In this document: positions 1 through 41,690 of the stretch, piece after piece
Position numbering within the stretch: position 1 is the stretch's first letter
Layout of the letters: each line of letters begins with the position of its first letter
Source: a virus
Length of the DNA: 53,599 nucleotides
Reading direction: 5' to 3' (one strand)
IMG/VR virus record: IMGVR_UViG_3300045988_107797
Location: 1 to 53,599 of that record
Translations under genes and position numbers: made by a program
The notes under the pieces: model-generated
What the model saw: the letters and a program-made list of their open reading frames with translations, nothing else
Database searches by the model: none
Told to the model about the DNA's origin: nothing

Positions 1-635
1 AACGCAGCTAATTGTTCAGGTGTGAAATCCGAATATACAAAAGGATCGCCCTTTGCGCCTTTTAGCTGTCCATTATTAGTCCATTTATTTCCATCCCAAC
101 CATAGTAATCATAGGTAGCATCCGCGCCCACTCCATATAATGAGCCGACTTCTACACCACTGGTCGGTAATTCTGAAACATTGCTAACATATCCGACGAT
201 CTTTACTACTGTATTTGATGCGATTGCCTTGTTAACAAGATTTGTAAGTGCTGTGAAATAATCTGATTGTTCTATTACTTGATCAGAAACACTTGCTGCT
301 TCCACATCAATGATAAAACCGAAAGTCGTAAGTTTCTCAGCATTCACATTATAGAGATTAACCTCGGCTTTAACTCGACCAGCCACGGAAAGAGCAGCTT
401 CAATAAGTTGCACCTCGATAATGTTATTTACAATGAGTGCATCATAAAAGAAAGAATGCCCGTTAGGACACAAACCTCTAAAAATTGCCGAGGTTCCATC
501 GGGAATTGTAAACGGAAGACCATTATCGGTTAGAGTTATATTAATATAACGAGCATTATCAAGCTGTTTCGCTCTCACAACTACCGGAAAATCTGGTTTT
601 GCAACATCAATAGTAATACTGTTTGTTACTTTCAT
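1..635 (-). CDS. Tail fibre / receptor-binding protein, N-terminal part (BppU_N-like domain, then the first collagen-like repeat). It continues across the circular junction into 52289..53599.
   Basis: Absent from the ORF track because it has no stop inside the window. ATG at 635 with a GGAGAA SD upstream. My own translation, MKVTNSITIDVAKPDFPVVVRAKQLDNARYINITLTDNGLPFTIPDG..., resembles the N-terminal domain of the lactococcal baseplate protein BppU. It reads through to nt 1 as ...GQLKGAKGDPFVYSDFTPEQLAA. Confidence 0.7.
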   Translation of the reverse strand, partial: MKVTNSITIDVAKPDFPVVVRAKQLDNARYINITLTDNGLPFTIPDGTSAIFRGLCPNGHSFFYDALIVNNIIEVQLIEAALSVAGRVKAEVNLYNVNAEKLTTFGFIIDVEAASVSDQVIEQSDYFTALTNLVNKAIASNTVVKIVGYVSNVSELPTSGVEVGSLYGVGADATYDYYGWDGNKWTNNGQLKGAKGDPFVYSDFTPEQLAA

Positions 636-813: not shown

Positions 814-880
814 CACCCCCCGGAGAATTTTTTAGGAGTGCCGCGATAACGAGGGGGGTGTAGTTTTTGCGACCCCCCTC
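814..880. promoter_or_regulatory. Mutually exclusive G6/C6 hairpins (attenuator-like, ncRNA-like or packaging-site-like element)
   Basis: CACCCCCC (814-821) and ACCCCCCTC (872-880) can each pair with the single G tract GAGGGGGGTG (851-860). A/T runs flank both alternatives. These are the only such G/C tracts in the AT-rich part of the genome. Confidence 0.5.
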
Positions 881-900
881 CCACCGTCTCCAGAGGAATT

Positions 901-918
901 GCAGGTTGTCTAACCTGC
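901..918 (+). terminator. Hairpin followed by a plus-strand U-run; it would stop plus-strand (antisense) transcription
   Basis: GCAGGTT-GTCT-AACCTGC, followed on the plus strand by TTTCTTTGTTTGTTT. It overlaps the stop codon of 910..1167. Confidence 0.4.
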
Positions 919-1167
919 TTTCTTTGTTTGTTTAACTTTTTTGTAAATGTTCATGAAATCATATTTTATGATTTCGTCAATTGCTTTTTCAATTTCTTCG
1001 TTTATTTCTTGCTCTGAAAGTTCATCAGAAATTTTTGCAATTCGAGCCAAATAAGCACAAGAATTGTAACCTTTTTGAACATCGAAAAGAAACCAAGAAG
1101 TGAAGTCATCGAAAGGATCATAAGGGTTGTCAAAAGTTGTTAGTGCAACATTATTCATATGCTTCAC
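910..1167 (-). CDS. Hypothetical acidic protein (85 aa)
   Basis: ORF track. Its start overlaps the stop of 1164..3878 (translational coupling). No recognisable domain. Confidence 0.6.
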   Translation of the reverse strand: MKHMNNVALTTFDNPYDPFDDFTSWFLFDVQKGYNSCAYLARIAKISDELSEQEINEEIEKAIDEIIKYDFMNIYKKVKQTKKAG

Positions 1168-3878
1168 TCCTTTCCTTTAACATAGTTACCGACTATTGTT
1201 GCTGAAACACCTAAAGCTTCTGCAATTTCTGCATTATTGTACCCAGAAGCGAGCATAGCTTTAATCTTTGCGACCTGGTTAGGTGACAATCCTTTAGAAT
1301 TACGAGGTGTTGCACGTTGTCTTAATTGATCGATGTCGGTGTATTTAAGAATCTGGCTGAGGATGTTATCCGAAATAGCTCCGGCTTGTATGGCTTCCCA
1401 TTGTCTATCTGAAATAGTTATAGGAGTTCTCTGTGCACCGACTTTAATACGAGCTGATGTTAAAGCTTGCTGGCTTGCTTTTTTAATTTCTGCCTTAGTC
1501 ATATCGGGGTTCTGCCGTTTTTTTGCATTAACCGCTGTGTTGGCGATAATCTGAGCCTGACGTTCACGTGGGGCGTTCTTAAGGGCTATGTTGAGGGATG
1601 ATACCAGGGAGTCTACCTCCCCTTTATAGGTTTCCTTAGCCGAAGGAGATACTTTTATACGTCCAGTATTCATCATCTCTTTACGGGCCTCATTGGCTAG
1701 CATCTTCATGTTGTTTGCATAAGTAGCATATGCCTCTTCTTCCGGAGTGCCAGATGAAAGTTCTCTAGCATCCTTGGCTTCTGCCATTCTCGTACTAGTT
1801 TGGGTTCTAATTCGAGTCTTTCCTTTAGAATCAACATAAGTTTCATTTGCTTCCTTGTAATGTTGTTCGCCAGTTTCCTTATCGATTATCGGACTTCCTT
1901 TTCTTTTTGGCACCTGCACTTGAGATTTGGCTCGTGAAATTAATGTCGCGGCTCCCTCATGGTATCTACCAGTTTCGGGGTCAATAGTACCCTGATAATA
2001 TTTGTGTAAAGCTGCAATACCATTATCTTTTTCACTCTGTTTGTAATCCAGTTCATGCTTAGTGGCATCTATAATTACCATACTATGCCGAACAGCTCTT
2101 TCAATCTCATTTCGAGGAGCACCCATTAAAGTCATATCCGTAATTAGATTTGAAATGACTCCCATTTCAATCTGTTTCTGGTTTTCGCTAAGAACGCGCA
2201 TACCTTCACGTTTAGGGTATTCCATTTTTGGATCGAAATTTTTAAGTCCTTCCAAATATGGAGTGGATTTGATCTTAGTCTTACCTCCAGTTGGTATAAC
2301 CATTACGGTATCACCATCAAAGTCTGCGCCAGATAACCGCGCAGCAACATTACTATTAATACCAACGGCGTCTACTGCATTACCAAGAATACGTTTAGCT
2401 TCCGGTTGTTTATTGTTTACGGTTAGGATAGGTATCTCAAAAGTTCCACCATGAGGATAGCGAATTAATGCGATTGTCTCACCATTCTTATAATTCGGAG
2501 CATAAACCTCATCATCCTTCATTGAAGTAATCGGAAGAATGACTTGGTATTTTTGACGAGGCAAAGCGGCCGCTTTCAGATGTACAGCTGCAGCATCGCA
2601 ATCATCGGCGAAAGACTTCAAAAGAGCCCGCTTCACGGTAGGATTTGTAAGTTCTGAAATTTGTTCAAATTCAAGACGCTTGTCAGCGGTTGCCAAATTA
2701 AGCTGCTTATTAATCAAAGACAGATTTTGTTTCGATAAAAACTGAGACGATAGATGATCGCTCCATTCACCCCAGTCACCTTCTTCTGCACGTTTATTAA
2801 TTAGTGACAACGATTGTCTTTTTCCGCTTACCTCATCCACAAATTTACCATTAGGGTCATCATAAAAGCTTTGCCCTCCATGTTCTTTTATCAAAGATCC
2901 AAATGGATTTTCGGGATCATCCTTAATTTTCTTAAGGACTTCCATTTTAGGGGTGGTTTTGCTTTTATTAGTATTGAATAGAACATCTACTCCATCTGGT
3001 AAATCATCTGAATAGACGGCCATGCCCTTAAGATAACGATTATTATCTACTAATATTCGAACCTGAGCATAATGAGCCTCTCCTAATGATAAATCGTCAA
3101 CTCCACGACGAATTTCAATAACTCCATCTTTCTCTTTTCCTCCGTCTTCCGCATATCGAATAGCTAATCGACTCGAATCCATGCTTGCTGGATAGTAAAA
3201 AGACTTCTTAAAAGTTTCTCCGCCATCATAAGTCACATAATCTCTAAGAGAATGAATGTTCTCAAAATTATATATGTCGCTATATTTAGTCCCGGGAGGA
3301 CAGAGTACTTTAATATTAGTCTGTTTTCCTTTATTCGTTACTTGAGGAACACCGACACCGTATATCTCATAACCTTCACGCTCCAAAATATAGAGCGCCT
3401 CTTCAAACTTCTCGCGGGAAATATCTCCAAGCTCTTTCTCAACGCCGGCTCCAACATCGATCATACCTTTTTCATCTACTTTACTCTTAAGAAATTCCGC
3501 AGTTCTACGAGCAGCGTTCATTCTTGCTTCTGAGTGCTCATTGAGTAATGAACGAACGGATGAGTCATTGTTATAGCCCATGATCTCTGCAATTTCATTC
3601 AGACTCTTTCCATCTTCTCGTAAAGATTTGGCACGATCTACCTCCAAACGACGACGTTCTTCTTTAGCTAAAGACTTCTGAACGCGAAACTCAGTTGTTG
3701 TAAGGCCTATTGCTCTTGCAATTTCGGTATCGTTCATACCTTGACTCTTTAATTCATCGACACGACTAAGAAAATCACCGCTATGCTGATACGGGTTTTC
3801 TCCTGAACCCCAGGGATAGCGTCCAGAACGGCGCTTAATTCCATAATGCATCAAAATATCTTCTGTTACGCTGTTCAT
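1164..3878 (-). CDS. Single-polypeptide two-barrel (YonO-like) DNA-dependent RNA polymerase candidate with N- and C-terminal HTH modules
   Basis: 904 aa. A beta-prime-like barrel reads IALIRYPHGGTFEIPILTV...AVGINSNVAARLSGADFDGDTVMVIP (DFDGD = aa 519-523, nt 2310-2324). A beta-like barrel reads RYLKGMAVYSDDLPDGVDVLFNTN (about nt 2964-3035). HTH-like segments are MNDTEIARAIGLTTTEF, SLNEIAEIMGYNNDSSVRSLL and the C-terminal SGYNNAEIAEALGVSATIVGNYV. Confidence 0.7.
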   Translation of the reverse strand: MNSVTEDILMHYGIKRRSGRYPWGSGENPYQHSGDFLSRVDELKSQGMNDTEIARAIGLTTTEFRVQKSLAKEERRRLEVDRAKSLREDGKSLNEIAEIMGYNNDSSVRSLLNEHSEARMNAARRTAEFLKSKVDEKGMIDVGAGVEKELGDISREKFEEALYILEREGYEIYGVGVPQVTNKGKQTNIKVLCPPGTKYSDIYNFENIHSLRDYVTYDGGETFKKSFYYPASMDSSRLAIRYAEDGGKEKDGVIEIRRGVDDLSLGEAHYAQVRILVDNNRYLKGMAVYSDDLPDGVDVLFNTNKSKTTPKMEVLKKIKDDPENPFGSLIKEHGGQSFYDDPNGKFVDEVSGKRQSLSLINKRAEEGDWGEWSDHLSSQFLSKQNLSLINKQLNLATADKRLEFEQISELTNPTVKRALLKSFADDCDAAAVHLKAAALPRQKYQVILPITSMKDDEVYAPNYKNGETIALIRYPHGGTFEIPILTVNNKQPEAKRILGNAVDAVGINSNVAARLSGADFDGDTVMVIPTGGKTKIKSTPYLEGLKNFDPKMEYPKREGMRVLSENQKQIEMGVISNLITDMTLMGAPRNEIERAVRHSMVIIDATKHELDYKQSEKDNGIAALHKYYQGTIDPETGRYHEGAATLISRAKSQVQVPKRKGSPIIDKETGEQHYKEANETYVDSKGKTRIRTQTSTRMAEAKDARELSSGTPEEEAYATYANNMKMLANEARKEMMNTGRIKVSPSAKETYKGEVDSLVSSLNIALKNAPRERQAQIIANTAVNAKKRQNPDMTKAEIKKASQQALTSARIKVGAQRTPITISDRQWEAIQAGAISDNILSQILKYTDIDQLRQRATPRNSKGLSPNQVAKIKAMLASGYNNAEIAEALGVSATIVGNYVKGKE

Positions 3879-3880
3879 TG

Positions 3881-4438
3881 TTAGCTCTCCTGTTCTTTGA
3901 TCTTATTGATGATTTTATCGAAAACTATAATTTTATCCATAATGGGAAGGATGATGTCCGCCCCAGGATTATCTATCAAAACATCATCAAACTGATACAA
4001 GCGTGTTTCTGTATAGATGTCGCCAGGTTTGATTTTATACTCCAAACAGAAAAGAGCGGCGTAAATATAAAGCTGCTCCATATGAGCAGGAACAAGTCCG
4101 CTTTTATAATCGTGAATTCTAAGAACATTCTTCCGAAAGGAAATGGTATCAGCTGTACCAAAGCAATTTTCTGAATAATATAAAATTTGCTCCGGTTCCA
4201 TTCGATAGCCTATCCCATCATTTACATACATGTTTAGAGTCTTCTTAGATTTAGGGAGTTTTTGTCCGAGCCTTATACATTGGGCTGCAAACTCATGCAA
4301 TTCAGTTCCGCGTTGCGCAGCTAAGAAATTACTATAAGAGGTTGCAATTTTATCCGATGAATAATTAATCCAGTGATATTTACTCGCACCTAGAAAAGCG
4401 TGTTGGCCTACCAGATTCAAATGCTTGTTGAAGTTCAT
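3881..4438 (-). CDS. PD-(D/E)xK family nuclease (RecB/Cas4-like fold, DUF2800-like)
   Basis: 185 aa. GTADTISF...LRIHDYKSG gives a D...D-x-K core. GAGGTG SD. Sits in a replication-module context. Confidence 0.5.
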   Translation of the reverse strand: MNFNKHLNLVGQHAFLGASKYHWINYSSDKIATSYSNFLAAQRGTELHEFAAQCIRLGQKLPKSKKTLNMYVNDGIGYRMEPEQILYYSENCFGTADTISFRKNVLRIHDYKSGLVPAHMEQLYIYAALFCLEYKIKPGDIYTETRLYQFDDVLIDNPGADIILPIMDKIIVFDKIINKIKEQES

Positions 4439-4709
4439 TTAACACCTCTTCTTTGTTTTCTGGATATATAAATCTGGAAAAAGACATTCCATCCATCTTA
4501 TCAACATAATAATCTTGATTAGGTTGGTGTGTAGCATCTTTACAACGTTTACATTCTAGCGATGCCCAGCGATCTTTATAAAGAATTAATAGATCTGGGA
4601 TACCTTGCTTTTGATCCATTTTAAAAACCATAGCATCTGGGTATAACTTTTCAATATCTTTTTTCAGACGATCTTGAAAACCACTCTCCAAATCTCTTTT
4701 CCTCGGCAT
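4380..4709 (-). CDS. VRR-NUC domain nuclease
   Basis: IPDLLILYKDRWASLECKR is a PD...ExK core typical of VRR-NUC. I moved the start to the ATG at 4709, which has a GGAGGT SD; the longer track ORF begins in a hydrophobic, low-complexity stretch. Confidence 0.55.
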   Translation of the reverse strand: MPRKRDLESGFQDRLKKDIEKLYPDAMVFKMDQKQGIPDLLILYKDRWASLECKRCKDATHQPNQDYYVDKMDGMSFSRFIYPENKEEVLNELQQAFESGRPTRFSRCE

Positions 4710-4777
4710 ATATTTACCTCCAAAAAAGACAAAAAATAAAGAGAGAAGTAAATGAATTTTACCCATTTTATTCTTCT

Positions 4778-4810
4778 CTCTCTATAAAAGAGCATGTTTT
4801 TTTCGCGAAG
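4778..4810 (-). promoter_or_regulatory. Copy of the conserved promoter-like block (TCGCG-N14-TTTTAT)
   Basis: Coding strand reads TCGCGAAAAAAACATGCTCTTTTATAGAGAG, with exactly 14 nt between CGCG and the hexamer. Upstream of the VRR-NUC gene. Confidence 0.5.
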
Positions 4811-11379: not shown

Positions 11380-11391
11380 GTTAAATCAACT

Positions 11392-11424
11392 CCCTTCATT
11401 ATAGGGAATGTATTTTTCGCGTGA
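11392..11424 (-). promoter_or_regulatory. Copy of the conserved promoter-like block (ACGCG-N14-TATAAT)
   Basis: Coding strand reads ACGCGAAAAATACATTCCCTATAATGAAGGG. Confidence 0.55.
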
Positions 11425-12446: not shown

Positions 12447-13127
12447 TTAAGCCAAAATATCGACATTAGAATCATTCAGATCAGACGAATTTTCTCGAAG
12501 CTCGCAATAGGTTTCCCACGTAATCTCACGCCAATCTTTATTTTCCCTATCAGTAAAGAACCTATTGATATTGAATATTTCACCATCAGGCAACACGGCG
12601 TAGAATATCCCTTTAGTATCAAAATCACCATTTCCGTCCAAAGACAAGAAATCCTCAATATAAACTTTAATAGCATTCCCGGGACAGTACGGCATTTTAA
12701 CAGGGAAATATTCGTCCATGATTTTATCAATTAGACTGCTATGCCAAGAAGAACCGTTATGGATATCAACCCCAACGAAACGATTGACATCGGTATAATG
12801 TATCGATCCATCTGGCAATATTGTTTTAAATAGGCTGCTCATGCGTTTGTGTTGCCAGTGGTTCTCCCAAACAGGTTCTTCCCAGCTATCATCAGTATCG
12901 TAAATGGGGGTTAGAGGTCTTCCTTCAATAAGGCGGTTAAGAATGTTCTTTGTGATTTGAATACTCATCCCAGAATGCTGTACATTTGTAAGAACTTCGA
13001 AAGCTTTAAGTGCGTTTTCGTAGCATGCTACACCATACGCCCATTCGTTCCCAGATGCTGCGTCTTGCTCTCTACGGCAAGCCAATTCTACTTCGTTTTT
13101 CGCCCAATCCAGAACACTATTTTCCAT
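12447..13127 (-). CDS. Hypothetical protein (226 aa)
   Basis: ORF track. Confidence 0.6.
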   Translation of the reverse strand: MENSVLDWAKNEVELACRREQDAASGNEWAYGVACYENALKAFEVLTNVQHSGMSIQITKNILNRLIEGRPLTPIYDTDDSWEEPVWENHWQHKRMSSLFKTILPDGSIHYTDVNRFVGVDIHNGSSWHSSLIDKIMDEYFPVKMPYCPGNAIKVYIEDFLSLDGNGDFDTKGIFYAVLPDGEIFNINRFFTDRENKDWREITWETYCELRENSSDLNDSNVDILA

Positions 13128-14380: not shown

Positions 14381-14452
14381 AAAAGTAAAAGGGACTCGAA
14401 CCCTCGTCCTCTAAGTTTTAAACCTAGTGCTCTACCACTGAGCTATTACTTT
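14381..14452 (-). tRNA. tRNA with anticodon UAA (nominally Leu, codon UUA) but with class-I architecture
   Basis: 72 nt. Acceptor AAAGTAA/TTACTTT; U8. D arm GCTC-AGTGGTA-GAGC. Anticodon arm CTAGG-TTTAAAA-CTTAG (anticodon at 14418-14420). The variable loop is only AGGAC. T arm GAGGG-TTCGAGT-CCCTT. Discriminator U; no encoded CCA. Confidence 0.8.
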
Positions 14453-14486
14453 TTCTCTCATAATACGAGTTGCAAATTTTGCGTAA
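14453..14486 (-). promoter_or_regulatory. Copy of the conserved promoter-like block directly upstream of the tRNA
   Basis: Coding strand reads ACGCAAAATTTGCAACTCGTATTATGAGAGAA, then the tRNA 5' end. The hexamer ends 7 nt before the mature tRNA 5' end. Confidence 0.6.
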
Positions 14487-14992: not shown

Positions 14993-17900
14993 TTAAATAT
15001 CAAATGGTGGTTTGTCATCGGGAATTGCTTTTACATATGGGTCATCTGAAACAAACCATTCAAAGTCGCCATAATCAAAAATAGCAGCAACAGCATCGTT
15101 TGCCATTGTCTCGTAATAGCGATAGTCTATATCGTTTTCTTTTTTATTCGATTTGACCATTTCGGATTCCATCCATCGATAACCTTTGGAACCGCTAACT
15201 GCCGCATAACCTTTTTCGCCGGTTTTCTTGTTTTCGGTTTCGCGCAACAGTATTCCGCCGCCACATCCGGGTTTTATCGGACAGAATTGGCCGACTTTAC
15301 CGATGAAGTGATAGTCGTGACCTTTGGAAATATCAGCGTTCAAAGCTAGAACACGATCGTCAATATCAAACGGCAAATCGCCATTTTCGTCACTGTACTT
15401 CTTGAGAAGAACTGCAACCTCTTTTTCCAGATCACTCACATCAGGCAAATTCTCGTTCATATCCAAATATAAAGCGGAGCTTACGGATTTTGTTTCGCAA
15501 AGATCGTCAAGTGTAATATCTTCATGTGTGAATAGTTTCTTAAAGACATACGGTACTTGGAATTGCGTACCAGTGGCTGTCCATTCACCGCCATGCTTCT
15601 TACAATCCTTGAGGATATCTTTGGCTTCATTGACATATTCTTCCCCATATAGCTCGCAGCAATGATCGATGGTGGCGTACTTAGCAATATAAACGGCGTC
15701 ATTAACGAGACACATACGGTCGTAAGTAGCCTCATGCTCAAAGTTATATCCATATTGCCGTCCGTACTTAGTTATAAAATCGATTATTTCCGGAGTAGCA
15801 TCGGGTATCTTTATCGAATCTGTCTTTATATGCGCCACAGTGAAGCCCTTCGACTGAACAACGTGCTTTAGGTTTATCATAAAGAGAGCTCCACGCTTAG
15901 CGACAATATTATCCCGATTGCGAACATCACGAAAAGGATTATCAAACGTTGCTGAAGTCAAACCATAAACAGAATTGATAGCAATTTTCAAAGCCTGAGC
16001 CAAATCTGCTGCTGCGGTCTCATCCGTTAAGTATTTAGCCAAAGCTCCATCCAGCATTTTCTTCGCTTTGTCGAAGTCCTTATGCTTAATAGCTATACGA
16101 GCGTCGAGAATTTCTTTGAATCGTTTGGTATAAACCGGACCGAAAAGCTCTTCCGCGACTATACTGCTCGGATGCATTGAGGCAATATCCAGTAATGCAA
16201 TATTTCCGTACATACCAGGTTCGGAATATACGTAACCACCTTCGCCAACTTCCTCTCCTCGATAAGTGGAAATACCATTGTCGTAGACATATCCAGGAAA
16301 TACAGGTTTTAAATTCTCATCGAAAAGTGTGTATTCATCACCAAAACTATCAAATATACATCCATCAGGAGAAACAGTCACAGGAGAAGTTTCCTTTGTA
16401 ACCAAGCCCATATCCCGATATTCAAATTGATCCTGAGGTTTACGATTATCGCCAAATATAATTCTTGTGGTAAGTGAGTTGGTTGTGTCATTAACAGACA
16501 TACCAGCCACATCCGCCAAGACTTTTCGAGCTATGAAATCCGCTTGACGGTTATCGAATACCGCTTCGGTTGCTATAACGTCATTGTCACAATATTCAGC
16601 AACTTTGGTCCACATCTCTTTCGGGACAGGTTGATCCCAAGGCAAACCAAGTTCTTGATGATGTATTCCGAGCTCGATTTCCCACTTTTTAAGTGATTGC
16701 TTTTTAGAACAGAAATCGTAGACATCGGTATACGATACGTTATAAGCCTCACCAAAAAATGCGTCCCGATTTCCGGTTATTATCTTTTGCGACAAAGAAT
16801 ATAATTGCTCGTTTGTATAACCCATAAGTCGAGCATACAATATATGATTGTCGTAACGTCGGCAATTGAATCCGACAAGATTGAAGCGCATTAGATCTTC
16901 AATTTCAATAGGTGTTGGATTGATCATACGTACGACCGGTTTTCCATCACCCTGAAATTTCCAATTGACTAAAAATAGATTTGGGAAAACTTCAACATCA
17001 TAAAAAACAAGCCGAACATCTTCACTTTTCGAGGGCTTAGAAATATCATCCGATTTGAACCGCATCTTTTTAACCAATTTGACGCAGTATTCCGCTTGGT
17101 TCGTACTGCTCATAGCAAAGTTGAGTATCGAATTGCGCATATCGGAAATATCATATTGCAATCCATTAGAATAAGCATCCTCAAGCCCTTTATATATGAA
17201 GTCGATACTCGGTTTGGTGTTGGCATGATATTCCTTGTTCAGATTTCGTTTAATAAATGTTCTTAAAGCCTTCTCGTTCTTAATGCCCTCAAAATTTACC
17301 ATCTTATTTTCTCCTTTCATTGGTAAACCTGAGCTTATTTGTGCTATAGGTAGATTATTGCATTTAGTCAATTTACGTCTAAGAGAGCTTTTACCCGTAA
17401 AGACTTTGACCTCGATATGATCATCATAGAATCGGCTAAGTTTCTTGGAATCACCAGTATAAATATAATGCAAGTGAATTCCCTTACCGCTTTTACTCAA
17501 TTCCGCATATGTTGCTGGCCATTTGCTCGCAGCAGCCAGATTAGCTTCGAATGATTTTTCTCCACTTTCATCTGGGATATCAAAGTCGATTACGATATGA
17601 TTTTCGGGAAGCTTTACATAATGCACCTTGGTCGTTGAAATATCTTTAAGTGTTGTAGTCACATCATCCCAAGGTTTACTTGGAGTTTCCTTAGATGTTG
17701 CATATTGTGCCGGACAATTCGAACATACCTCGTCGAAAATAGACTTTTGAGATTTAAACTCAATAGTTGAAATATCAGGCTCACATTTGGTAGTAAGTTT
17801 GACGTCTTCAAACTTGTCTGTCCGGAAACCCGAATAGTAACTACGAGATCTTGTACCATCGTCCATTGTAAAACGTTCCTTATAATCTCGGAAATAATTC

Positions 17901-19105
17901 TTAAGCTCTTCCTTAAACACCCTTTGACTTAATGGATAAGCTACCTTAGCTTCATCGCAATAAGTGTTATACATTTTCCAAGCGGCTTTTAGCGTAGTAC
18001 CATCTTCGTTCTTAAAAACGTAATAAGAGTCTAAAATATAATTGTAGAAATCGTTAGACGCACCAAGCATTGCTAATGGTATATAAGTATCATACGCTCC
18101 AGGGTTCTCCTTATAAACCTCCAGACAATGATATGCTATACCACCCAGCTCAAATTTAATGCGATCTACAGTAGTCTTATACTCTTTGCTATTAAGCTTA
18201 TTGCCAGTTGGGGATACATCAATCAGACGTCTAATAAGACCCGATTTTGCGTCCGTAATTTTTACAGGCTTATTCGTACCCATGAATAGTAAACATTTAA
18301 AGCGATTGGCGTAAGTGGATTTGAATTTCTCATTAACTGTCATAAGCTCATGTGAAACCAAGCTGTTAAGTCGTGTATTGTCTTCAATTCGAGACAAATC
18401 GCCGTCGTGTTGAATAGCCACTAGCGGATTAGACTTAAATGCTTCCAGAGCAAATGAGTTACTTGACGAGCCAAGAGCTTTCGCATCAAAAACTGAATAA
18501 TATCCTTCGAATAACTGCTGAATAATATTTAGAACGGTCGATTTACCAGTTCCGGCAGCACCATAAAGAACTAAAAATTTTTGAAGTTTCTTACTATCTC
18601 CAGATACGATTGAGCCAATAGCCCATTCTATCTTATGTCGTTCTTCGTCTGAATAAAGAGTAGACATTAACTTGTCATACGCTGAAATATCACCCGCTTC
18701 AAGAGGATAATTAAGTTTTTTACTCGCGTAATCAGTTTTTTTCAATTCAGTATTCGAGAATATCAACTCTTCGTCCAACATGTGATAGTTGTCACGCATT
18801 TGCTTTTGACAATATTTATGCCATGAATCTATCATTCCAGATTCGGCATCCCACATATGAAGGACCTTTATGTTTGAATCAAACTTTTGCCGATTTTCCT
18901 CGGCATATCTATCCAGTTCGCGATCTATGAGTTGCAGTGCGTCCTGCTCCTCAGTGGACCATAAACCGCGTTCCTCAACCCAGATGGCATAAAAATCGCC
19001 ACCGCGAATCATAAGATCGGAGCTTTTACAGACAATAAACTTCGGATAGATTTCGATTACTCCACGCCTTGTACTACGTGTTGAAATCATTAAGAAGTCC
19101 ATCAT
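14993..19105 (-). CDS. SF3 helicase / AEP primase-polymerase / family-B DNA polymerase triple fusion
   Basis: 1370 aa. SF3 helicase: Walker [10 protein letters not shown], Walker B IQHDGD, FMGTN. AEP primase: [17 protein letters not shown]. PolB: Exo[10 protein letters not shown], Exo[13 protein letters not shown], ExoIII YCDNDV, motif [10 protein letters not shown], motif [10 protein letters not shown], motif C HIKTDSI. Confidence 0.8.
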
Positions 19106-22535: not shown

Positions 22536-22572
22536 AATTGTTCTCCTTTCAGATTATAATAAGTTAATGTTT

Positions 22573-22603
22573 CCTTCATAATAGAAAATGTAATTTTCGC
22601 GTA
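22573..22603 (-). promoter_or_regulatory. Copy of the conserved promoter-like block
   Basis: Coding strand reads ACGCGAAAATTACATTTTCTATTATGAAGG (hexamer 22578-22583, CGCG 22598-22601). Confidence 0.55.
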
Positions 22604-23371: not shown

Positions 23372-23706
23372 TTCATACTCCTTTTTAATGATAACGCTTT
23401 TCTTGACAATAGAATATAAATCTCCTCTGCTGTTTCATAAGCATAAGAAAACACCACGCTTCTTGCTCCATCATTCATGCTATAAAATTCATACATCTCT
23501 TCCTTAAATTGTTTAACTGTTTGAATCGGATCGTCCGTACTACTTTCAAGTCTTTTAATTATCTCGCTTGCTGCACAAGATGAATAAGCTACTTCTTGCA
23601 GATAATAGTGGGGCCATCCGACTTTCGGTTTGGGAATAGTTTTCGAACAATAGCTACGAATGAAATTAATAGCCTGATCAGTTGTCATATTCGTCGTTTT
23701 TTGCAT
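23368..23706 (-). CDS. Hypothetical protein (112 aa)
   Basis: ORF track; ATGA-type coupling to 22604..23371. Confidence 0.55.
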   Translation of the reverse strand: MQKTTNMTTDQAINFIRSYCSKTIPKPKVGWPHYYLQEVAYSSCAASEIIKRLESSTDDPIQTVKQFKEEMYEFYSMNDGARSVVFSYAYETAEEIYILLSRKALSLKRSMK

Positions 23707-23890
23707 CTTCGAGAGCCTGACCGATTAAAGCATAAACTACAGTCTTCTGCTTTTCAGTCAATGTTTCAAAAACATCGCTTACAGTTTTTTCATTTTCTAG
23801 AACCTGACCGATTAAAGCGTAAACTACAGTCTTCTGCTTTTCATTCAATGTTTCAAAAACATCGCGTACAGTTTCTTCATTGCTCGCCAT
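23678..23890 (-). CDS. Small ORF built from two tandem copies of the capsid-gene linker segment
   Basis: 70 aa: MASNEETVRDVFETLNEKQKTVVYALIGQVLENEKTVSDVFETLTEKQKTVVYALIGQALEDAKNDEYDN. It has the same SD (GAGGAAGATAAA-ATG) and near-identical DNA to 38839..38952. Confidence 0.55.
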   Translation of the reverse strand: MASNEETVRDVFETLNEKQKTVVYALIGQVLENEKTVSDVFETLTEKQKTVVYALIGQALEDAKNDEYDN

Positions 23891-23905
23891 TTTATCTTCC
23901 TCTCA
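23702..23905. repeat. Two tandem copies of the ~105-nt segment also present at 38839..38952
   Basis: By-eye alignment: 23702-23790 and 23799-23905 each match 38839/38848-38952 with only a few mismatches. Confidence 0.85.
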
Positions 23906-24100: not shown

Positions 24101-24112
24101 AAGCTTTTAGCC

Positions 24113-24146
24113 TCCTTTCATAATATAAAATGTTTATTTCGCGTAA
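24113..24146 (-). promoter_or_regulatory. Copy of the conserved promoter-like block
   Basis: Coding strand reads ACGCGAAATAAACATTTTATATTATGAAAGGAGG (hexamer 24120-24125). Confidence 0.55.
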
Positions 24147-25315: not shown

Positions 25316-25337
25316 TTTGTACCCCTTTCGTTATGGT

Positions 25338-25366
25338 TTCATAAAAGAAAATGTTAATTTCGCGGA
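25338..25366 (-). promoter_or_regulatory. Copy of the conserved promoter-like block
   Basis: Coding strand reads CCGCGAAATTAACATTTTCTTTTATGAAACC. It overlaps the last codons of 25354..25596. Confidence 0.5.
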
Positions 25367-25890: not shown

Positions 25891-25901
25891 AATTATCACC
25901 T

Positions 25902-25935
25902 TCCTTTCATAACAGAAAGTGCATATTTCGCGTAG
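25902..25935 (-). promoter_or_regulatory. Copy of the conserved promoter-like block
   Basis: Coding strand reads ACGCGAAATATGCACTTTCTGTTATGAAAGGAAGG. Confidence 0.55.
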
Positions 25936-26253: not shown

Positions 26254-26262
26254 AATACACCT

Positions 26263-26296
26263 ACCTTTCATAATAGAAAATGTAGGTTTCGCGTAT
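26263..26296 (-). promoter_or_regulatory. Copy of the conserved promoter-like block
   Basis: Coding strand reads ACGCGAAACCTACATTTTCTATTATGAAAGGTAGG. Confidence 0.55.
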
Positions 26297-30396: not shown

Positions 30397-33300
30397 ACAG
30401 CGTCCCTCCTTTCGACTTGCTGCTGGAGTATTCTGGATACTTCATTCGCGATTTCACGCGGATTGTCACCAGTAATTGAGAAATGATTAGTTATGGTAGT
30501 GTTCTTTTCGCCAGACATAGCATTACCAAGTTTCTTAATTTGATCGAGCATAGACGCGGTAAGACTTGCATTATTAGGCTGAAGCGGGAGTGATCCCATA
30601 GTAGTTTTTGCCAGATTAACCGTTCCATCAATAGAGTATCCATTCCAGGAATTCGAAAGCTTGTCTATACGAGTAGCCCCGGACTCTATATCCGATAAGT
30701 CTAATATGGGTCGAATCGTAGGCTGAGTATCGATGCCGTTGACAATATCCGACATTCCATTAATAGCCTTTTCCATTGCAGTCTTAGCTGTTTTGCCAAT
30801 GCCAATAGCAGAATTCGCAATACTATTTTCGGAATCCTCCAAACCCAAAGCTAAACCTTCACCGGTATATACGCCGATTTTTCTGAAAACCTTAGAAGGA
30901 GAATTAATTCCAAGCCAGCCTTTAACGGTTCTTATGGCTGCCTTAGCGATGTCTTTAGCTTTCTGCACTACAGCATCGATCATATCACCCATACCTTTGA
31001 TGAATCCTTCTATAACGGCTTTACCCGAAGCACAGAAGTCGGTTACAGCTCCGCCAGTCAAGAATTCAACAACACTGTCTATGATAGTAGTTATCAAATT
31101 CAATACTGAATTCAGAAGATCAGTGAAGTTTTCATCAATTGCCTTCGAAAGACCATCGATAAAACTTATAAGCAAGTCGAAACCCGCTTGGGCTATATCA
31201 TCCATTTTCTCACTTATACCACGAATGAGTCCCAAAACGATTTCTATACCTGCCTCAACGATAGGCTGCATGTTATTAGCAATAGTCTCTAGTAAACCCG
31301 TTATTATAGAAAGAACCTTTTCAAATATCATCGGACCATTCTCATCGATGGCCGTAAGAATAGATGTAATAAGGTTCAATATCGTAGTTACTATAAGCGG
31401 AAGAGTTTCGCCAATGGTTACGACAAGGCTCGTAATACCGTCAAGAATTGCCTGGATAATACCAGTAACGATAGCTGATACCACAGTTATCAAGGCATTT
31501 ACACTGGCCGTACTTGCTAAAGCTAAAGCGGTTAAACCAGCTGCGATGGCAGTCAATCCAGCACCAGTTAAAGCAAGACCAGCTCCGAATGCTAGTATGG
31601 CTACACCAACTAAGGCTAGTGCACCAGCCAAACCAAGAATAGTAGGTATAACGGGAGTCAAAATCGCGCCTGCCAACCCAAGAACCAGAAAAGTACCTGC
31701 AAGAGCGCCAAGAGCTACTAGCATCTTTGTAAAAGGAATATTACTTAGGATTTTTAATGCTGTACCCAATATTATTAGCGAACCTGCTACAATTGTTAAA
31801 GCAAAAGCACCCTTGACGTTGTTGTTCATTGCAGTAAGGAACAGTGCTAGTACGCCAAGTGAACCGCCGATAGCGACTATGCCCTTAGCAATGTCTTCCC
31901 ATTGAAGAGTTTGAAATATCTTTAATGCAAGGCTCAAAGTTATTAATGCTCCAGCCGCAATCGTTAAAGCAAAAGCACCTTTGATATTATCGTTCATCGC
32001 GGTAAGGAATAGTGCTAGTACGCCAAGTGACCCTCCGATAGCCACTATACCCTTAGCAATGTCTTCCCATTGAAGAGTTTGAAAGATCTTTAACGCAAGA
32101 CTCAAAGTTATTAAAGCTCCTGCCGCAATTGTTAAAGCAAAAGCCCCTTTGATATTATCGTTCATCGCGGTAAGGAACAGCGCCAAGACACCAAGTGAAC
32201 CACCGATAGCAACTATACCCTTAGCGATGTCTTCCCATTGAAGAGTTTGAAATATCTTCATGGCTCCAGCTAATATAACGACTGCTGTAGCAACGCTAAC
32301 CATAGCTAGACCGACACCTAACATTTTCTTTTGTGGAAAAGCGCGGGCTGTTGCAGTAAGAATTGCCATTACTCCGACAAGAGCCGCGATACTACGCCCT
32401 ATATCCTCTTCGGGTATTTTAGAAAGGATTTTCATTGCGCTAGCTAATATCAGCACAGAAGTTGAAATACCAACCATTGCTATAGCGATGGATCCAAATC
32501 CTTTTATACCGCCACCAAATCCCGAAAATAACTTGAGGAACAAGCCAAGTTCTGTCATCAAAGCTCCGATAGCGACAACTGATTTCATAAGTTTATCGCT
32601 TTCAATAGAAGATATAAGCATTAACGAACCAGCTAATATCCCAATCGAAATCGATATATTCAAAAGCGATTTGGCATCTATGCTGGTTTTCCAAGATGAC
32701 AAAGCATCTCGAACACCGTCCAGCACACCCACTATCGAACCTTTTATATCGCTAAATATTTGAAGAGGCTTTTTAATGCCAGATAATGCTTTTCCAAGAA
32801 ATACTGAAATAGAAGCAAGGGAAAGACTGTTGATTAGCTTTGGCATGTCCACTTTTATATTGCTAAAAAGCTTTGATAAAACTTTACTAACAAATGCAGC
32901 GCCTTTCCCAATAGCAGAAAATATATTTGTAATATGAGGCGAAGCACCAGAAAATAAACCTGTTAACCATTTTAAAACGCCGCCTATTTTTTCTCCAATA
33001 GTAACAAAAATATTTCCTTCTTCTATACTCTTGGATAAAGAAGTAACCATTTCTCCCAAAGAGCCAGTAAATTCTAAGAGTATCGGCACGAGAGATCCCG
33101 AATTATCAATAATGGATCGCACGACAGTCCAAACGCCTTTTAGAGCATCTTTGATAATACGAAGAACTGAAAATAACCCCTGAAATGTCGAAACTAAATT
33201 ATCACGATGCTTTTGTATAAAATCAGAAATTGATTTTACAAAATCACGAAAGTTTTCAGTAATCTCTACTAATCGTTCAGCGGTCATTGGAGGAAATACA

Positions 33301-37703: not shown

Positions 37704-39509
37704 TTAAGCAGAAACCTTTTCTACAGCTATGGCAGAATAGGGAAGAGTCAAGGCACCAGAGCAACGAGTTTCAATAAGATACTTCTGCTGGTTATAGTCA
37801 ATGTCGAAATCATCGAACATATTGACCGCACCACCCTTATCTGCACCAATGGTATAATCATTCGGATTGACGATAATGCCCAACAGAGTATGTACCTTAC
37901 TGTTATCATCAGTCCTTGTCAGATTCTCCATTACAGGAACAGTAACGATTTCCTTAACACGCAGAGTCGTAGCCAGTTTGGCAGCTGACTCATAGATCAC
38001 ACGACCGGTGGTGTCTTCCAGAAGAAGCATATCAGTAAGCATATCTTCAGTAGTGTACAGGGTGGGATTGCCAGAACCCTTATAATTCTTACGAGCCTTG
38101 ATGCACTGCTTAATGAAATTCTTAGCTATAGTAGATTCATTATCACTAGAAGCAACACTTACAGTCTGCTTGATTGTGTAGAAGTCGTCATCAGTCCAGA
38201 TAGGACGAATATGAATGGGATCAATCTTATCATCAGAAGAACTTACACGGCCATCACCAACCAAGATTGCCCTGGCAAGTTCTTCGTCTAGCATAATCCG
38301 CATTTCCTTCTTTATCCAAGCTACTACATCCAAATCAACGATATCAACCACATCATCACGATCCATCTTCTGCTTCTTATACACAGTAGTGGGGCTAGTG
38401 CTTCTCTTAAGCAAGGTGAAGACTTCCTCCTTCTTAAGATTACCCTTAATATAACCCTTAGCTCGAGCATCATCCTCGGTAATATTAGCGAAAAGGGACT
38501 TTATCCTAGAAAAAGGAGTATGGCGAATGTTATTCATGAGCTTGCTCACCCAATCCATATTGCGAGAAACAAATATGGGCTCATTCGTTACCGAGCGATC
38601 ATCGGGGAACAAATATCCGACATTCTCTATACCATAATCAGCATGGAACAGAGAATTGCTATCACAACCTCTATCCTGAGCAAAGTTCTCTACCGCTTCC
38701 CTCATACTGCCAGTACGCCTAGCATCAGCAAGTATAGCCTGCATATCATCAGCATGAATCATAGTGGTTTCGGGATCGACGTTATCAAATACATTATGCT
38801 TCATATTTTCTCCTCCATCTTCTTCGTCATTATCGTTTGCATCTTCGAGAGCCTGACCGATTAAAGCGTAAACTACAGTCTTCTGCTTTTCAGTCAATGT
38901 TTCAAAAACATCGCGTACAGTTTCTTCATTACTAGCCATTTTATCTTCCTCCTTTAAAGAATCACCCTTTGGACCTTGTGGACCAATATCTCCTTTCGGA
39001 CCTTTCGGACCTTTCAATGCAGCCAATTGTTCTTCTGTAAAATCATTCATGGAATTATGCTCGAGTATAAAATCTTCGCCGGTATAAATATCTGCTTCAT
39101 CTTCTACCATTTCCCCATGGCGCACCACATTACATATAGATGCTCCAGGATTAGCGCCAGCCAGGACAAGACTGACCTCTTTAATATCACCGTGAAGAAC
39201 ATTCGAGCCTTCCTGCTTAAGCTGATTTGCGAATATTGACAAAGCGGAAATATCACCATGTTCTACGAGAAGTTTAGCGGCTTTACCAGCTTCGCTTTCA
39301 TTAAACGTGCAATATGCATAAACACCATCTTCTTGATTCTTCAACAAAGCGTGACCAAGAACGTTACTAGGATCATCATGCCGATGGTTCCAAACCAACG
39401 GTACAATTTTTCCGTCACAGCCTTTAAAGGCGTCTCTACGTATTACACGGCCATCGGAGCATTTCAAATCGTTTCGAGTTGCCCAACCGTGAAAATCGTA
39501 TTTTACCAT
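37704..39509 (-). CDS. Prohead protease (HK97/S78-type) - collagen-like linker - major capsid protein fusion
   Basis: Protease part: VPLVWNHRHDD...ALSIFAN...EVSLVLAGANPGA. Linker: FTEEQLAALKGPKGPKGDIGPQGPKGD. The C-terminal ~410 aa are HK97-fold-capsid-like. Confidence 0.75.
   Translation of the reverse strand: MVKYDFHGWATRNDLKCSDGRVIRRDAFKGCDGKIVPLVWNHRHDDPSNVLGHALLKNQEDGVYAYCTFNESEAGKAAKLLVEHGDISALSIFANQLKQEGSNVLHGDIKEVSLVLAGANPGASICNVVRHGEMVEDEADIYTGEDFILEHNSMNDFTEEQLAALKGPKGPKGDIGPQGPKGDSLKEEDKMASNEETVRDVFETLTEKQKTVVYALIGQALEDANDNDEEDGGENMKHNVFDNVDPETTMIHADDMQAILADARRTGSMREAVENFAQDRGCDSNSLFHADYGIENVGYLFPDDRSVTNEPIFVSRNMDWVSKLMNNIRHTPFSRIKSLFANITEDDARAKGYIKGNLKKEEVFTLLKRSTSPTTVYKKQKMDRDDVVDIVDLDVVAWIKKEMRIMLDEELARAILVGDGRVSSSDDKIDPIHIRPIWTDDDFYTIKQTVSVASSDNESTIAKNFIKQCIKARKNYKGSGNPTLYTTEDMLTDMLLLEDTTGRVIYESAAKLATTLRVKEIVTVPVMENLTRTDDNSKVHTLLGIIVNPNDYTIGADKGGAVNMFDDFDIDYNQQKYLIETRCSGALTLPYSAIAVEKVSA
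38839..38952. repeat. Master copy of the ~105-nt segment duplicated at 23702..23905
   Basis: Read directly: TGCATCTTCGAGAGCCTGACCGATTAAAGCGTAAACTACAGTCTTCTGCTTTTCAGTCAATGTTTCAAAAACATCGCGTACAGTTTCTTCATT... Confidence 0.85.
38937..38957 (-). promoter_or_regulatory. Internal in-frame SD and ATG that could yield a separate 411-aa capsid protein
   Basis: AAAGGAGGAAGATAAA-ATG, with the ATG at 38939 (codon 191 of the fusion ORF). The same SD and ATG context recurs at 23890. Confidence 0.5.
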
Positions 39510-40795: not shown

Positions 40796-41275
40796 CTAAG
40801 CAATATTAACTTTTCGTTTACTGTATGCAACTCGGCCAGAAGCCCAAACGCCATTTTTAAGTTGATTAATATTATAACCTTGATCAGCCAAAGCCATATG
40901 TACTCCTATTTCACCACGTTTAGCGATAAATTTGACCGCTCTACCTGACGGAGCTGTTATGTTAGTTGCTTTTTCATTCATGAGTTCGGCTAATTTACGA
41001 TTATAAGAATTAATTGTAGAAGCACTAATTTTACCTTTTGATGTTCTGCTTCTAGGCTGGGACAGAAGTTGATTAGCATATCTATTCATATCCCTCGAAA
41101 CGCTCTTTTGCGTTTTAGAAACGATTTTATTATAGTTCTTATTAGCCCATTTAACATCTTTCTTTTCCAGACGTTTTTGGCCCAACTCGGTCAATGTTCC
41201 ATCAGGATTCTGATACCTTCGAATGCCCCACTTCATACCAAGAATGCCATGATGATAAAGCTCATTTTTAAACAT
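40796..41275 (-). CDS. N-box paralog 4 (159 aa)
   Basis: Begins MFKNELYHHGILGMKWGIRRYQNPDGTLTELGQKR; the C-terminus is divergent. Confidence 0.65.
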   Translation of the reverse strand: MFKNELYHHGILGMKWGIRRYQNPDGTLTELGQKRLEKKDVKWANKNYNKIVSKTQKSVSRDMNRYANQLLSQPRSRTSKGKISASTINSYNRKLAELMNEKATNITAPSGRAVKFIAKRGEIGVHMALADQGYNINQLKNGVWASGRVAYSKRKVNIA

Positions 41276-41348: not shown

Positions 41349-41690
41349 CTAATTTAAAAGCCGTTTAGCTTTTGACATTTCTTCTTTATACTGGTCTTTT
41401 ATTGATGAAAGTTGGCTATCATATATTTTTGACCGTTTAATTACCGCATCTATATCATTTCCCATTCCCTTCTTTTGAAGAACGTCGAGATCTTTTAGAA
41501 AAGAATTATATGCTTTCTTAATCCTACGAGCTTTATTTTCTTTTGCCCGCCGTTTGGCCTCTTTGTATTCGCCTTTTTTATATCGTTTCGCTGATTTTGA
41601 TACTCCAACAGAATTGGTAGATGCGCGCTTTTTATGAACGCCCCATTTCATACCAAGAACACCATAGTGATAAAGCTCATTTTTAAACAT
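41349..41690 (-). CDS. N-box paralog 3 (113 aa)
   Basis: Begins MFKNELYHYGVLGMKWGVHKKR; basic C-terminus. Confidence 0.65.
   Translation of the reverse strand: MFKNELYHYGVLGMKWGVHKKRASTNSVGVSKSAKRYKKGEYKEAKRRAKENKARRIKKAYNSFLKDLDVLQKKGMGNDIDAVIKRSKIYDSQLSSIKDQYKEEMSKAKRLLN

Follow-up and report, generated by a model that had tools for sequence, protein, structure and literature searches.

Single-chain two-barrel RNA polymerase homologs with terminal helix-turn-helix units, and a promoter-like block that accompanies their genes in phages of two bacterial phyla

Single-chain RNA polymerases (RNAPs) with two catalytic barrels are found in phages and in eukaryotic silencing pathways. YonO of the Bacillus prophage SPbeta was established as a DNA-dependent RNAP in a study that left its promoter and specificity factor undetermined. 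The related non-virion RNAPs gp64 and gp62 of the Thermus phages P23-45 and P74-26 (PDB 8f72, 8f5m) are compact single-chain two-barrel polymerases that transcribe early and middle genes from a promoter motif of their own. QDE-1 and the eukaryotic RNA-dependent RNA polymerases (RdRPs; PF05183; PDB 2j7n, 7y7p; RDR2, 7w82) are silencing enzymes that copy RNA or single-stranded DNA (ssDNA). How single-chain two-barrel RNAPs find promoters is an open question, and the phage family PHROG 4291 makes it directly testable: its candidate specificity domains share a chain with the catalytic core, and a promoter-like block travels with the gene across two phyla. Here we analyse one such gene, a 904-aa open reading frame (ORF) at 1164–3878 on the minus strand of IMG/VR record IMGVR_UViG_3300045988_107797. 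The window, meaning the whole stretch of DNA analysed, covers positions 1 to 53,599 of that record.

The family itself has been described before. In a list of five YonO-like families, Ruprich-Robert & Thuriaux 2010 (PMC2919709) included the phage 1706 protein. Koert et al. (bioRxiv 10.1101/842583) reported RdRP/YonO-like motifs, a DxDGD motif and helix-turn-helix (HTH) domains at the N- and C-termini of the same family, obtained an HHpred RdRP probability of 95.7% from a family alignment, and suggested RNA polymerase activity. Both PHROG 4291 and RefSeq already carry names for the family, and papers from 2024–2026 still handle the polymerase annotation as a curiosity. The terminal HTH segments, offered as new in a preliminary description of the window, had therefore already been published. 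The window protein is a further member of a known family that has been described in silico and is biochemically uncharacterised.

Conserved motifs and predicted fold of the polymerase

Spanning about 53.6 kb, the window is a near-complete siphophage genome whose minus strand carries essentially every gene; the coordinates of the polymerase gene, its domains and the promoter-like blocks given below all refer to that strand. The polymerase ORF begins with ATG and matches PHROG 4291 (‘RNA-dependent RNA polymerase’) with E = 0 and 1303 bits, aa 2–903 aligning to profile positions 5–908 of 909. The preliminary description had placed the ORF correctly without naming its strand, and the peptides that it quoted all lie where it put them: ETIALIRYPHGGTFEIPILTV at aa 467–487 and AVGINSNVAARLSGADFDGDTVMVIP at aa 504–529 for the beta-prime-like barrel, RYLKGMAVYSDDLPDGVDVLFNTN at aa 281–304, 238 residues upstream of DFDGD (aa 519–523, nt 2310–2324), for the beta-like barrel, and MNDTEIARAIGLTTTEF (aa 48–64), SLNEIAEIMGYNNDSSVRSLL (aa 92–112) and SGYNNAEIAEALGVSATIVGNYV (aa 878–900) for the N- and C-terminal HTH segments.

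Full-length homologs were found by tblastn in about 250 deposited phages, some 249 of them covering at least 80% of the query, at 39–51% identity. Their hosts are Arthrobacter (95), Gordonia (55), Streptomyces (54), Lactococcus (13) and others, and the Faecalibacterium phage FP_oengus is among them. The annotations vary between ‘HTH DNA-binding domain protein’, ‘RNA-dependent RNA polymerase’ and ‘putative RNA polymerase’. An exhaustive profile search of representatives at 50% identity returned 3,734 with E <= 1e-3 and 1,169 with E <= 1e-30. The family is very widespread, with more than 1,000 metagenomic clusters at 50% identity and about 250 phage isolates, of which several infect culturable hosts. 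Ruthenibacterium-type prophages encode homologs 74% identical to the window protein and a 99% identical protein cluster is present in ENA metagenomes; a megablast search with the first 12 kb of the window gave no match among deposited phages. The ‘phage 1706-like’ members of PHROG 4291 (Lactococcus 1706/P162, FP_oengus AUV56548, Rhodococcus ReqiPepy6, and those of Arthrobacter AM/AU, Gordonia and Streptomyces BI cluster phages) are homologous to the window protein over its full length and have the same HTH-core-HTH layout; the window copy shows no essential difference from the rest of the family. One homolog, P0483 (1789 aa), has its polymerase region (profile positions 115–852) at residues 1053–1788, with about 1,050 extra N-terminal residues fused to it.

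Residue conservation was read from an alignment of 74 non-redundant homologs in three clades, 39–74% identical to the query. In the upstream half of the core K284, G285, P294, G296, D298 and F301-N-T-N-K305 are invariant, as are R473, P475, H476 and the metal-binding loop D519-F-D-G-D523 (2310–2324; 74 of 74 sequences) further downstream. Such invariance marks the motif as a selected feature and excludes a chance pentapeptide. The segment R473-Y-P475-H476 (2451–2462) corresponds to the [RK]xP motif of two-barrel RNAPs, and the 43 residues that separate P475 from D519 agree with the combined [RK]xP and DxDGD filter, [RK]xPx{20,100}DxDxD, taken from Supplementary Data 4 of PMC10770324, a data set that covers only viruses with at least two RNAPs in a paper that defines 23 families. 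In the beta-like barrel of Rpb2 the invariant basic and acidic residues are K979, K987 and D837 (PMC2919709). Invariant K284 (YLKG) aligns to the WVKG of YonO, and R274, K305, D251 and D298, all invariant, are candidates for the other Rpb2 positions.

Direct pairwise comparison with the bacterial subunits adds less. The beta-prime-like segment aligned to the real E. coli sequence with a local score of 39 (z 3.9; 0/300 shuffles), which makes the ‘position by position’ parallel drawn in the preliminary description weakly significant, driven by ADFDGD; the optimal alignment does not pair RYPH with RAPTLH. The beta-like segment showed no significant pairwise similarity to E. coli beta (z -0.7).

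The predicted structure is more informative. An AlphaFold2 (AF2) model of the full-length protein, built from the 74-sequence alignment, reached a pLDDT of 83.1 and a pTM of 0.74; for the core alone (aa 225–720) these values were 88.2 and 0.83. The model contains a beta-like double-psi beta-barrel (DPBB-B; aa 238–305, 2964–3167) that includes YLKG (K284) and FNTNK, with DSSP strands at 238–241, 253–257, 270–277, 281–290 and 299–302. It is followed by a beta-prime-like barrel (DPBB-A; aa 443–531, 2286–2552) with strands at 443–449, 457–459, 468–472, 484–487, 504–507 and 524–531, and aa 451–530 of this barrel give a local profile match to phrog_8308, the YonO family, at E 3.2e-4. The order of the barrels, beta-like and then beta-prime-like, is as first proposed. 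Two long helices follow DPBB-A (aa 565–584 and 589–608 by DSSP; 2055–2186) and carry invariant S576, N577, L578, D581, D604, K607 and H608 (SNLxxD, DxxKH). These helices are colinear with GEYSNNITKI and FTIDFAKT of YonO and would be candidates for the bridge-helix/trigger-loop region.

A Foldseek search of the PDB with the core model gave 25 matches at E <= 1e-3, and 25 of 25 were single-chain two-barrel RNAPs, aligned over 426–581 columns across both barrels. The top matches, all at probability 1.0, were QDE-1 (E 1.8e-10, TMq 0.45), P74-26 gp62 (1.9e-9), P23-45 gp64 (6.7e-9) and maize and Arabidopsis RDR2 (1e-7 to 1e-6). With the full-length model, QDE-1, gp62 and RDR2 again led the list. DPBB-B falls inside the 428–551-column alignments to QDE-1 and gp62. 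Weaker matches came next, to crAss-like phi14:2 gp66 (4e-3), a chain of the AR9 nvRNAP, and beta-prime/Rpb1 subunits, the last aligning over 144–230 columns around the DFDGD barrel. The structure search proposed in the preliminary description thus returned the DPBB similarity it was meant to look for, and on the strength of these models the protein almost certainly adopts the two-barrel polymerase fold. The beta-like barrel was also called correctly; the support for it comes from the predicted fold, and the E. coli beta parallel on which it was first based adds none.

YonO too is a single chain with the same DPBB order, it has the motifs KG, RxPH, DxDGD, SNxIT and IDxxK in common with the window protein, and yonO, like the window gene, lies just upstream of structural/late genes. 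However, YonO itself belongs to PHROG 8308, it has DNDGD where the window protein has DFDGD, and no HTH family appears among its PHROG matches. Aligned by hhalign to YonO alone, the window-family profile gave only a spurious 32-column match at 3% probability. Against a YonO-family alignment of 31 sequences from viral-contig loci, the result was marginal (E 0.03–0.08) and colinear across five motif blocks, which pair YLKGMA with WVKGLL, LIRYPHGG with ILRSPHLF, ADFDGDTVMVIP with FDNDGDKALIIS, GVISNLITDM with GEYSNNITKI, and VIIDATKH with FTIDFAKT (window first). No Bacillus SPbeta-like record was retrieved by tblastn with the window protein. An hhalign E value in this range, with the DPBB-A segment as the only local match, led us to reject strict membership of the YonO family, and membership of Pfam RdRP (PF05183) was rejected on a score of 13.8 bits against a gathering threshold of 23.8. 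PHROG 4291 is a sister family to YonO within the phage/plasmid/RdRP clade of two-barrel polymerases. The label ‘YonO-like’ holds for barrel order and colinear motifs, and goes too far where it implies family membership.

The best-matching solved phage structures, gp64 and gp62 (E 2e-9 to 7e-9, TMq 0.40–0.45), superpose on the window core with a root-mean-square deviation of 6.5–8.3 Å over about 430 columns at about 13% identity. At about 590 aa they are much shorter than the window protein, and the text of their source paper makes no mention of a helix-turn-helix. Their promoters are GC-rich, and the enzyme is expressed by a second, virion-borne RNAP, which the window phage lacks. QDE-1 and RDR2 have the same barrel order and DxDGD loop as the window protein but no terminal HTH domains.

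Helix-turn-helix units and the N-terminal peptide

The catalytic core is flanked by HTH units at both ends, with strong profile support at the C-terminus and weak yet consistent support at the N-terminus. The C-terminal HTH (aa 862–900, 1179–1295; helices 866–877, 882–889 and 893–900) matches Pfam HTH_38 at aa 862–896 with E 3.7e-8 and 33.4 bits against a cutoff of 27, the sole Pfam domain above cutoff in the protein. Just upstream of it lies a three-helix unit (aa 824–856, 1311–1409; helices 824–831, 837–845 and 849–856) in which W827, A829, A834 and L840 are invariant; phrog_664 and phrog_323 cover aa 823–903. The preliminary description called the C-terminal HTH ‘sigma-region-4/LuxR-like’. 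Its scores against Sigma70_r4_2 (16.5 bits, cutoff 25.7) and GerE (18.3 bits, cutoff 23.5) both lie below the cutoffs, so the label is unjustified, and the domain is a generic tri-helical HTH.

Of the two N-terminal units, the first (aa 31–66, 3681–3788; DSSP helices 31–45, 50–56 and from 61) matches phrog_7061 ‘HTH DNA binding protein’ at aa 38–61 (E 1e-4) and contains invariant R65. The second, HTH2 (aa 90–112, 3543–3611; DSSP helices 93–100 and 105–111), has a match to Pfam HTH_18 at aa 73–114 (E 0.004, below cutoff) and PDB profile matches to the HTH of the IS5376 transposase and to a DeoR-type regulator at E about 0.2. The arginine of its recognition helix, R109, differs among clades. The N-terminal matches are sub-threshold, and the model shows helix-turn-helix at the quoted peptides; the claim of HTH segments at both ends is thereby sustained.

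Upstream of these units stands a conserved peptide, HYGIKRRSGRYPWGSG (aa 11–26, 3801–3848), which is predicted to be disordered (pLDDT about 41). Across the 74 sequences H11, Y12, G13, S18, G19 and R20 are invariant, and Y21, P22, G24, S25 and G26 are at least 90% conserved. Such a disordered invariant peptide could serve in delivery or recruitment of the enzyme at the start of infection. The polymerase N-terminus (DILMHYGIKRRSGRYPWGSG, aa 4–26, 3801–3869) weakly resembles DUF7211 (E 0.002, below cutoff), and may represent a shared targeting or recognition peptide. Four small paralogs that flank the terminase gene (40796–41275, 41349–41690, 43531–43941 and 43961–44386, minus strand) start with a DUF7211 motif, NELYHHGILGMKWGIRRYQN, above the Pfam cutoff. 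These paralogs are limited to the window and its Ruthenibacterium-type relatives, and hence allow no general inference about a shared targeting peptide. In Streptomyces phage HotFries the annotated polymerase start at 40664 drops the invariant N-terminal HYGVLRRSGRYPWGSG; this motif is encoded further upstream, beginning at about 40580, and the deposited start is probably wrong.

The promoter-like block and its candidate reader

A block of about 30–34 nt, TACGCGAAA-N3-ACA-N5-TATTATGAAAGG (consensus TACGCGAAAwwwACATTTTCTATTATGAAAGG), occurs eight times in the window, on the gene strand only. In a position weight matrix (PWM) scan of the window, the opposite strand had 0 sites and shuffled sequences about 0. 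Each of the eight copies stands just upstream of a gene start, the genes in question being small early-like ones, several replication genes, a tRNA gene and those of the polymerase operon. The copy at 4776–4809 (38.6 bits) heads the endonuclease-exonuclease-polymerase operon, and that at 14452–14485 abuts a tRNA-Leu gene (14381–14452), the 5′ end of the tRNA being position 34 of the block. The remaining six lie at 11390–11423 (41.7 bits), 22570–22603 (45.0), 24112–24145 (43.7), 25333–25366 (38.1), 25901–25934 (42.4) and 26262–26295 (42.7).

Related blocks accompany the polymerase gene in other phages, which were scanned with the window weight matrix or by simple word counts; sites are on the gene strand. 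FP_oengus has 12–14 sites of the form CGCGAAAAA-N-CA-N7-TTTATGGAAGG, Arthrobacter phage Circum 7–8 sites (CGCGTAAATTACA-N5-TATAAT), and HotFries at least six (TCGCAcGTTTTACatGCTTTATAgTGAGACCCCTAC) in a high-GC genome. Ruthenibacterium-type prophages, represented here by L088, have two in 22.7 kb, one of them heading the polymerase operon in the same place. In Lactococcus P162 about 11 sites (TTTTACATACCCTATAATGAAAGG) have the same downstream half and a different upstream half. The block of the polymerase operon has an equally placed counterpart in L088 (9066) and a nearby one in FP_oengus (27682), while its upstream flank is not conserved. As controls, the polymerase-less Faecalibacterium phages Mushu and Lugh contained 0 blocks, and a 45-kb segment of SPbeta, which encodes YonO instead, contained 0 at a 16-bit threshold and 1 at 12 bits.

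The upstream CGCG(A/T)AAA element is common to phages of Bacillota and Actinomycetota hosts and stands 12–13 nt from a TATAAT-like hexamer, beyond which conservation continues as a purine-rich stretch (GAAAGG, GGAAGG, GAGACCCCTAC). In FP_oengus, 11 of the 14 hexamers listed read CTTTAT, and 0 of the 14 listed have an A at -11. The FP_oengus tRNA (2936–3005; Rfam 47.9 bits) begins 3 nt after TTAT, at block position 29; in P162, as in the window, the 5′ end of a tRNA (18689–18755) falls on block position 34. Koert et al. and the Arthrobacter phage paper do not mention promoters, and as far as could be found a cross-phylum promoter-like block of this kind is new.

Three phages, namely the window phage, P162 and FP_oengus, therefore have a tRNA gene directly after a block. 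The tRNAs of FP_oengus and P162 have shortened anticodon-loop regions, and ARAGORN misses them or calls ‘tRNA-???’.

T7 promoters have the consensus …CACTATA|GGGAGA. As a functional analogy only, the block resembles T7-type promoters: over about 30 contiguous bp, an element for specificity is followed by AT-rich sequence and then by purines at the putative start (…TATTAT|GAAAGG). The T7-type RNAP has an unrelated right-hand fold.

The explanation that we favour, with some reserve, is that PHROG 4291 comprises two-barrel RNAPs that dock themselves on the block through their HTH units. QDE-1, YonO and gp64 have a catalytic cleft built from such a pair of barrels, and here the beta-like barrel (K284) and the beta-prime-like barrel (R473-x-P475, Mg-binding D519-F-D-G-D523) make it up in the same way. 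The examples of YonO, gp64 and crAss gp66 suggest that the enzyme most likely transcribes a class of genes of its own double-stranded DNA (dsDNA) phage without host core subunits, and it is probably an active DNA-dependent transcriptase. The N-terminal HTHs and the C-terminal three-helix unit and HTH would stand in for a sigma factor and place the enzyme on the block of about 30 bp (TACGCGAAA-N3-ACA-N5-TATTAT-GAAAGG). Promoter recognition by fused HTH domains, as raised in the preliminary description, is an idea we share in conditional form: the block is quite possibly, if not quite probably, the cognate promoter of the enzyme, read by its HTH domains. Several features point this way. The spacing of 12–13 nt, rather than 16–18, between the CGCG element and the hexamer, together with conservation across phyla, points to a conserved phage-encoded reader, for which the HTH-bearing polymerase is the obvious conserved candidate. 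The HTH2 recognition helix keeps the pattern [DE]S[ST][VIF]R in every phage with the CGCG element, and is altered (PGSVTNY) in P162, which is without it. No deposited genome belongs to the PDTTVG subgroup of HTH2. More tentatively still, we suggest that this would be the first two-barrel RNAP with promoter recognition in the catalytic chain, its HTHs reading CGCG(A/T)AAA-N3-ACA-N5-TATAAT-like-GRA, a signal conserved with the enzyme in siphophages of Bacillota and Actinomycetota.

A number of results weigh against this explanation. The block heads the polymerase's own operon, and in L088 and FP_oengus a terminator-like hairpin directly precedes it, so that expression of the enzyme would depend on the enzyme itself unless it were delivered in the virion or the operon were reached by read-through. 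Some relatives are prophages and as such have to begin with host RNAP, and P162 and Circum have a perfect TATAAT as hexamer, which fits host sigma-A. On the side of the protein, the hhalign comparison with YonO gives a marginal result, the global TM-score lies at only 0.26–0.47 for QDE-1 and gp62, and the Pfam RdRP match (E 0.023, aa 510–613) is sub-threshold. A PDB sequence search and a profile search with the 74 sequences retrieved HTH proteins only and zero polymerases, because the homology is too remote for sequence methods. No biochemistry for any PHROG 4291 member was found in the literature searched.

The transcriptional points among these would be easily explained by a division of labour of the YonO type, in which the phage enzyme is an active DNA-dependent RNAP that transcribes the late structural operon, and the blocks are early promoters of host RNAP, possibly used with an HTH protein or another phage factor on the CGCG element. 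Host RNAP would then drive the polymerase operon from its post-terminator block, in prophages as elsewhere, and the perfect TATAAT of P162 and Circum would be expected. The late operon of SPbeta (yonK ... yonF terminase), which YonO transcribes from a single promoter, follows directly on yonO; the layout here is the same, with the polymerase, a small ORF, a gap, tail-fibre/small genes and TerL in that order. The late operon would start just downstream of the polymerase gene and require one or few promoters and no repeat family, and the structural-gene region of the window indeed holds 0 blocks. We nonetheless consider this account rather unlikely. It does not explain the absence of a -35 element at 16–18 nt or the cross-phylum element 12–13 nt from the hexamer, and every FP_oengus block listed lacks the A at -11, a base required in -10 elements of the sigma-70 type. 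If the block drives the FP_oengus tRNA, a tRNA that begins 3 nt after TTAT is incompatible with a sigma-70-type start, which is expected 6–8 nt downstream of the -10 element. Moreover, the gap downstream of the polymerase gene was searched for a late promoter, and the search yielded nothing beyond a cos-like element rich in GC and an inverted repeat that is not conserved. A sigma-70 promoter scan around the operon found 25 sites against 19 +/- 4.5 expected, showing no enrichment, and the one TTGACT-16-TATATT site, located upstream of the 4809 block, is not kept in L088.

Two further accounts question the activity itself. An enzyme acting on RNA or single-stranded templates, whether an RNA-dependent RNAP, a primer maker or a QDE-1-like copier of ssDNA for the replication module, would suit the closest solved structures, since QDE-1 and RDR2 copy RNA or ssDNA, and the position of the gene beside nucleases at the end of a replication/recombination module. 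It appears improbable: the RdRP name goes back solely to resemblance to Pfam RdRP, the characterised phage members of the clade (YonO, P23-45 gp64, crAss gp66) are DNA-dependent transcriptases, and the dsDNA-type HTH fusions and the gene-linked promoter-like block fit transcription better. An AEP primase already resides in the phage replicase, which makes a priming role for the two-barrel enzyme unnecessary. The alternative of a large HTH regulator or DNA-binding protein, with a polymerase-like core that is catalytically dead or a scaffold only, draws on annotation: most deposited homologs are named ‘helix-turn-helix DNA-binding domain protein’, HTH_38 is the lone Pfam domain above cutoff, and precomputed Pfam lists for the homologs contain HTH families and DUF1699 (PF08004) but no polymerase domain. 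A dead scaffold would not, however, keep a core fold of about 500 residues and the catalytic and NTP-binding residues (DFDGD, RxP, KG), which are invariant in 74 sequences from two phyla down to 39% identity, and we regard this as the least credible of the accounts. A function of the CGCG element as a lysogeny operator was also considered and is unlikely; Circum and HotFries carry the element and, in the stretches fetched, have neither an integrase nor a repressor annotated.

Were the self-docking polymerase confirmed, it would amount to a sigma- and host-independent system of early/middle transcription with a predictable promoter code, and to a model for fusing sigma-like functions to a minimal polymerase core. 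A self-sufficient enzyme would offer orthogonal transcription in a compact module insensitive to rifampicin. Two misleading annotations that databases now propagate, ‘HTH DNA-binding protein’ and ‘RNA-dependent RNA polymerase’, would be corrected as well.

Genomic context of the polymerase gene

The polymerase is the penultimate gene of a replication/recombination arm that runs from a VRR-Nuc-type endonuclease (4380–4766, minus strand) through a Cas4-like exonuclease (3881–4438, minus strand) and the polymerase to an 85-aa ORF (910–1167, minus strand). The two nucleases belong to the same operon and were identified by profile matches to phrog_93 and phrog_3953. The 85-aa ORF always directly follows the polymerase gene and matches phrog_4303 (E 6e-36), with no Pfam match; P162, the Streptomyces phage Rima, FP_oengus, HotFries, Circum and L088 each have a small gene there. 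The gene order of the arm is likewise the same in all relatives examined (P162, Rima, HotFries, Circum, FP_oengus and the Ruthenibacterium-type prophages). Downstream of the polymerase come the small ORF, a non-coding gap of about 270–350 nt, tail-fibre/small genes and TerL, and in linear actinophage genomes this polymerase-to-TerL order crosses the joined ends. Elsewhere in the window a 1370-aa replicase (phrog_4210; 14993–19105, minus strand) fuses an SF3 helicase, an AEP primase and PolB, a fusion type described by Kazlauskas et al. 2016 for phage 1706 gp55. The AEP primase in this replicase is the ground on which a primase role for the polymerase was rejected.

Just past the phrog_4303 gene, at about 815–905 (minus strand), lies a GC-rich non-coding element, GGGAGGGGGGTCGCAAAAAC-ACACCCCCCTC ... 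TCGCGGC ... CCGGGGGG, which is conserved in L088 (about 12990–13070) and FP_oengus (about 31665–31740). It is probably a cos region, positioned like the cohesive ends of linear actinophage genomes; Circum has cos-type genome ends. Between this element and the tail-fibre gene is a perfect 19-bp inverted repeat (764–782 and 703–721; AGATTTAGGCGAGTTTGCA and TGCAAACTCGCCTAAATCT) with 42 nt between its arms; at the matching place long inverted repeats with other sequences are present in L088 and FP_oengus.

The ends of the window overlap, positions 1–60 and 53367–53426 being 98% identical over 60 nt within 99-nt collagen-like tail-fibre repeats. The tail-fibre gene (52289–53599 and 1–635, minus strand) starts at about 635 and continues from the far end of the window. 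Probably the assembly is circular or terminally redundant, and the contig was broken within the repeat. Collagen-like Gly-X-Y coding repeats are common to the tail fibre and a capsid protease/major-capsid fusion gene (37704–39509). A 116-nt segment of this fusion gene (38836–38951) is repeated at 94% identity in a small-gene region (23700–23902). Finally, the 9-mer ATGATATTT and its relatives (TGATATTT) occur in 12 copies on the gene strand and 0 on the other, in the window and FP_oengus, a strand bias that codon usage may drive.

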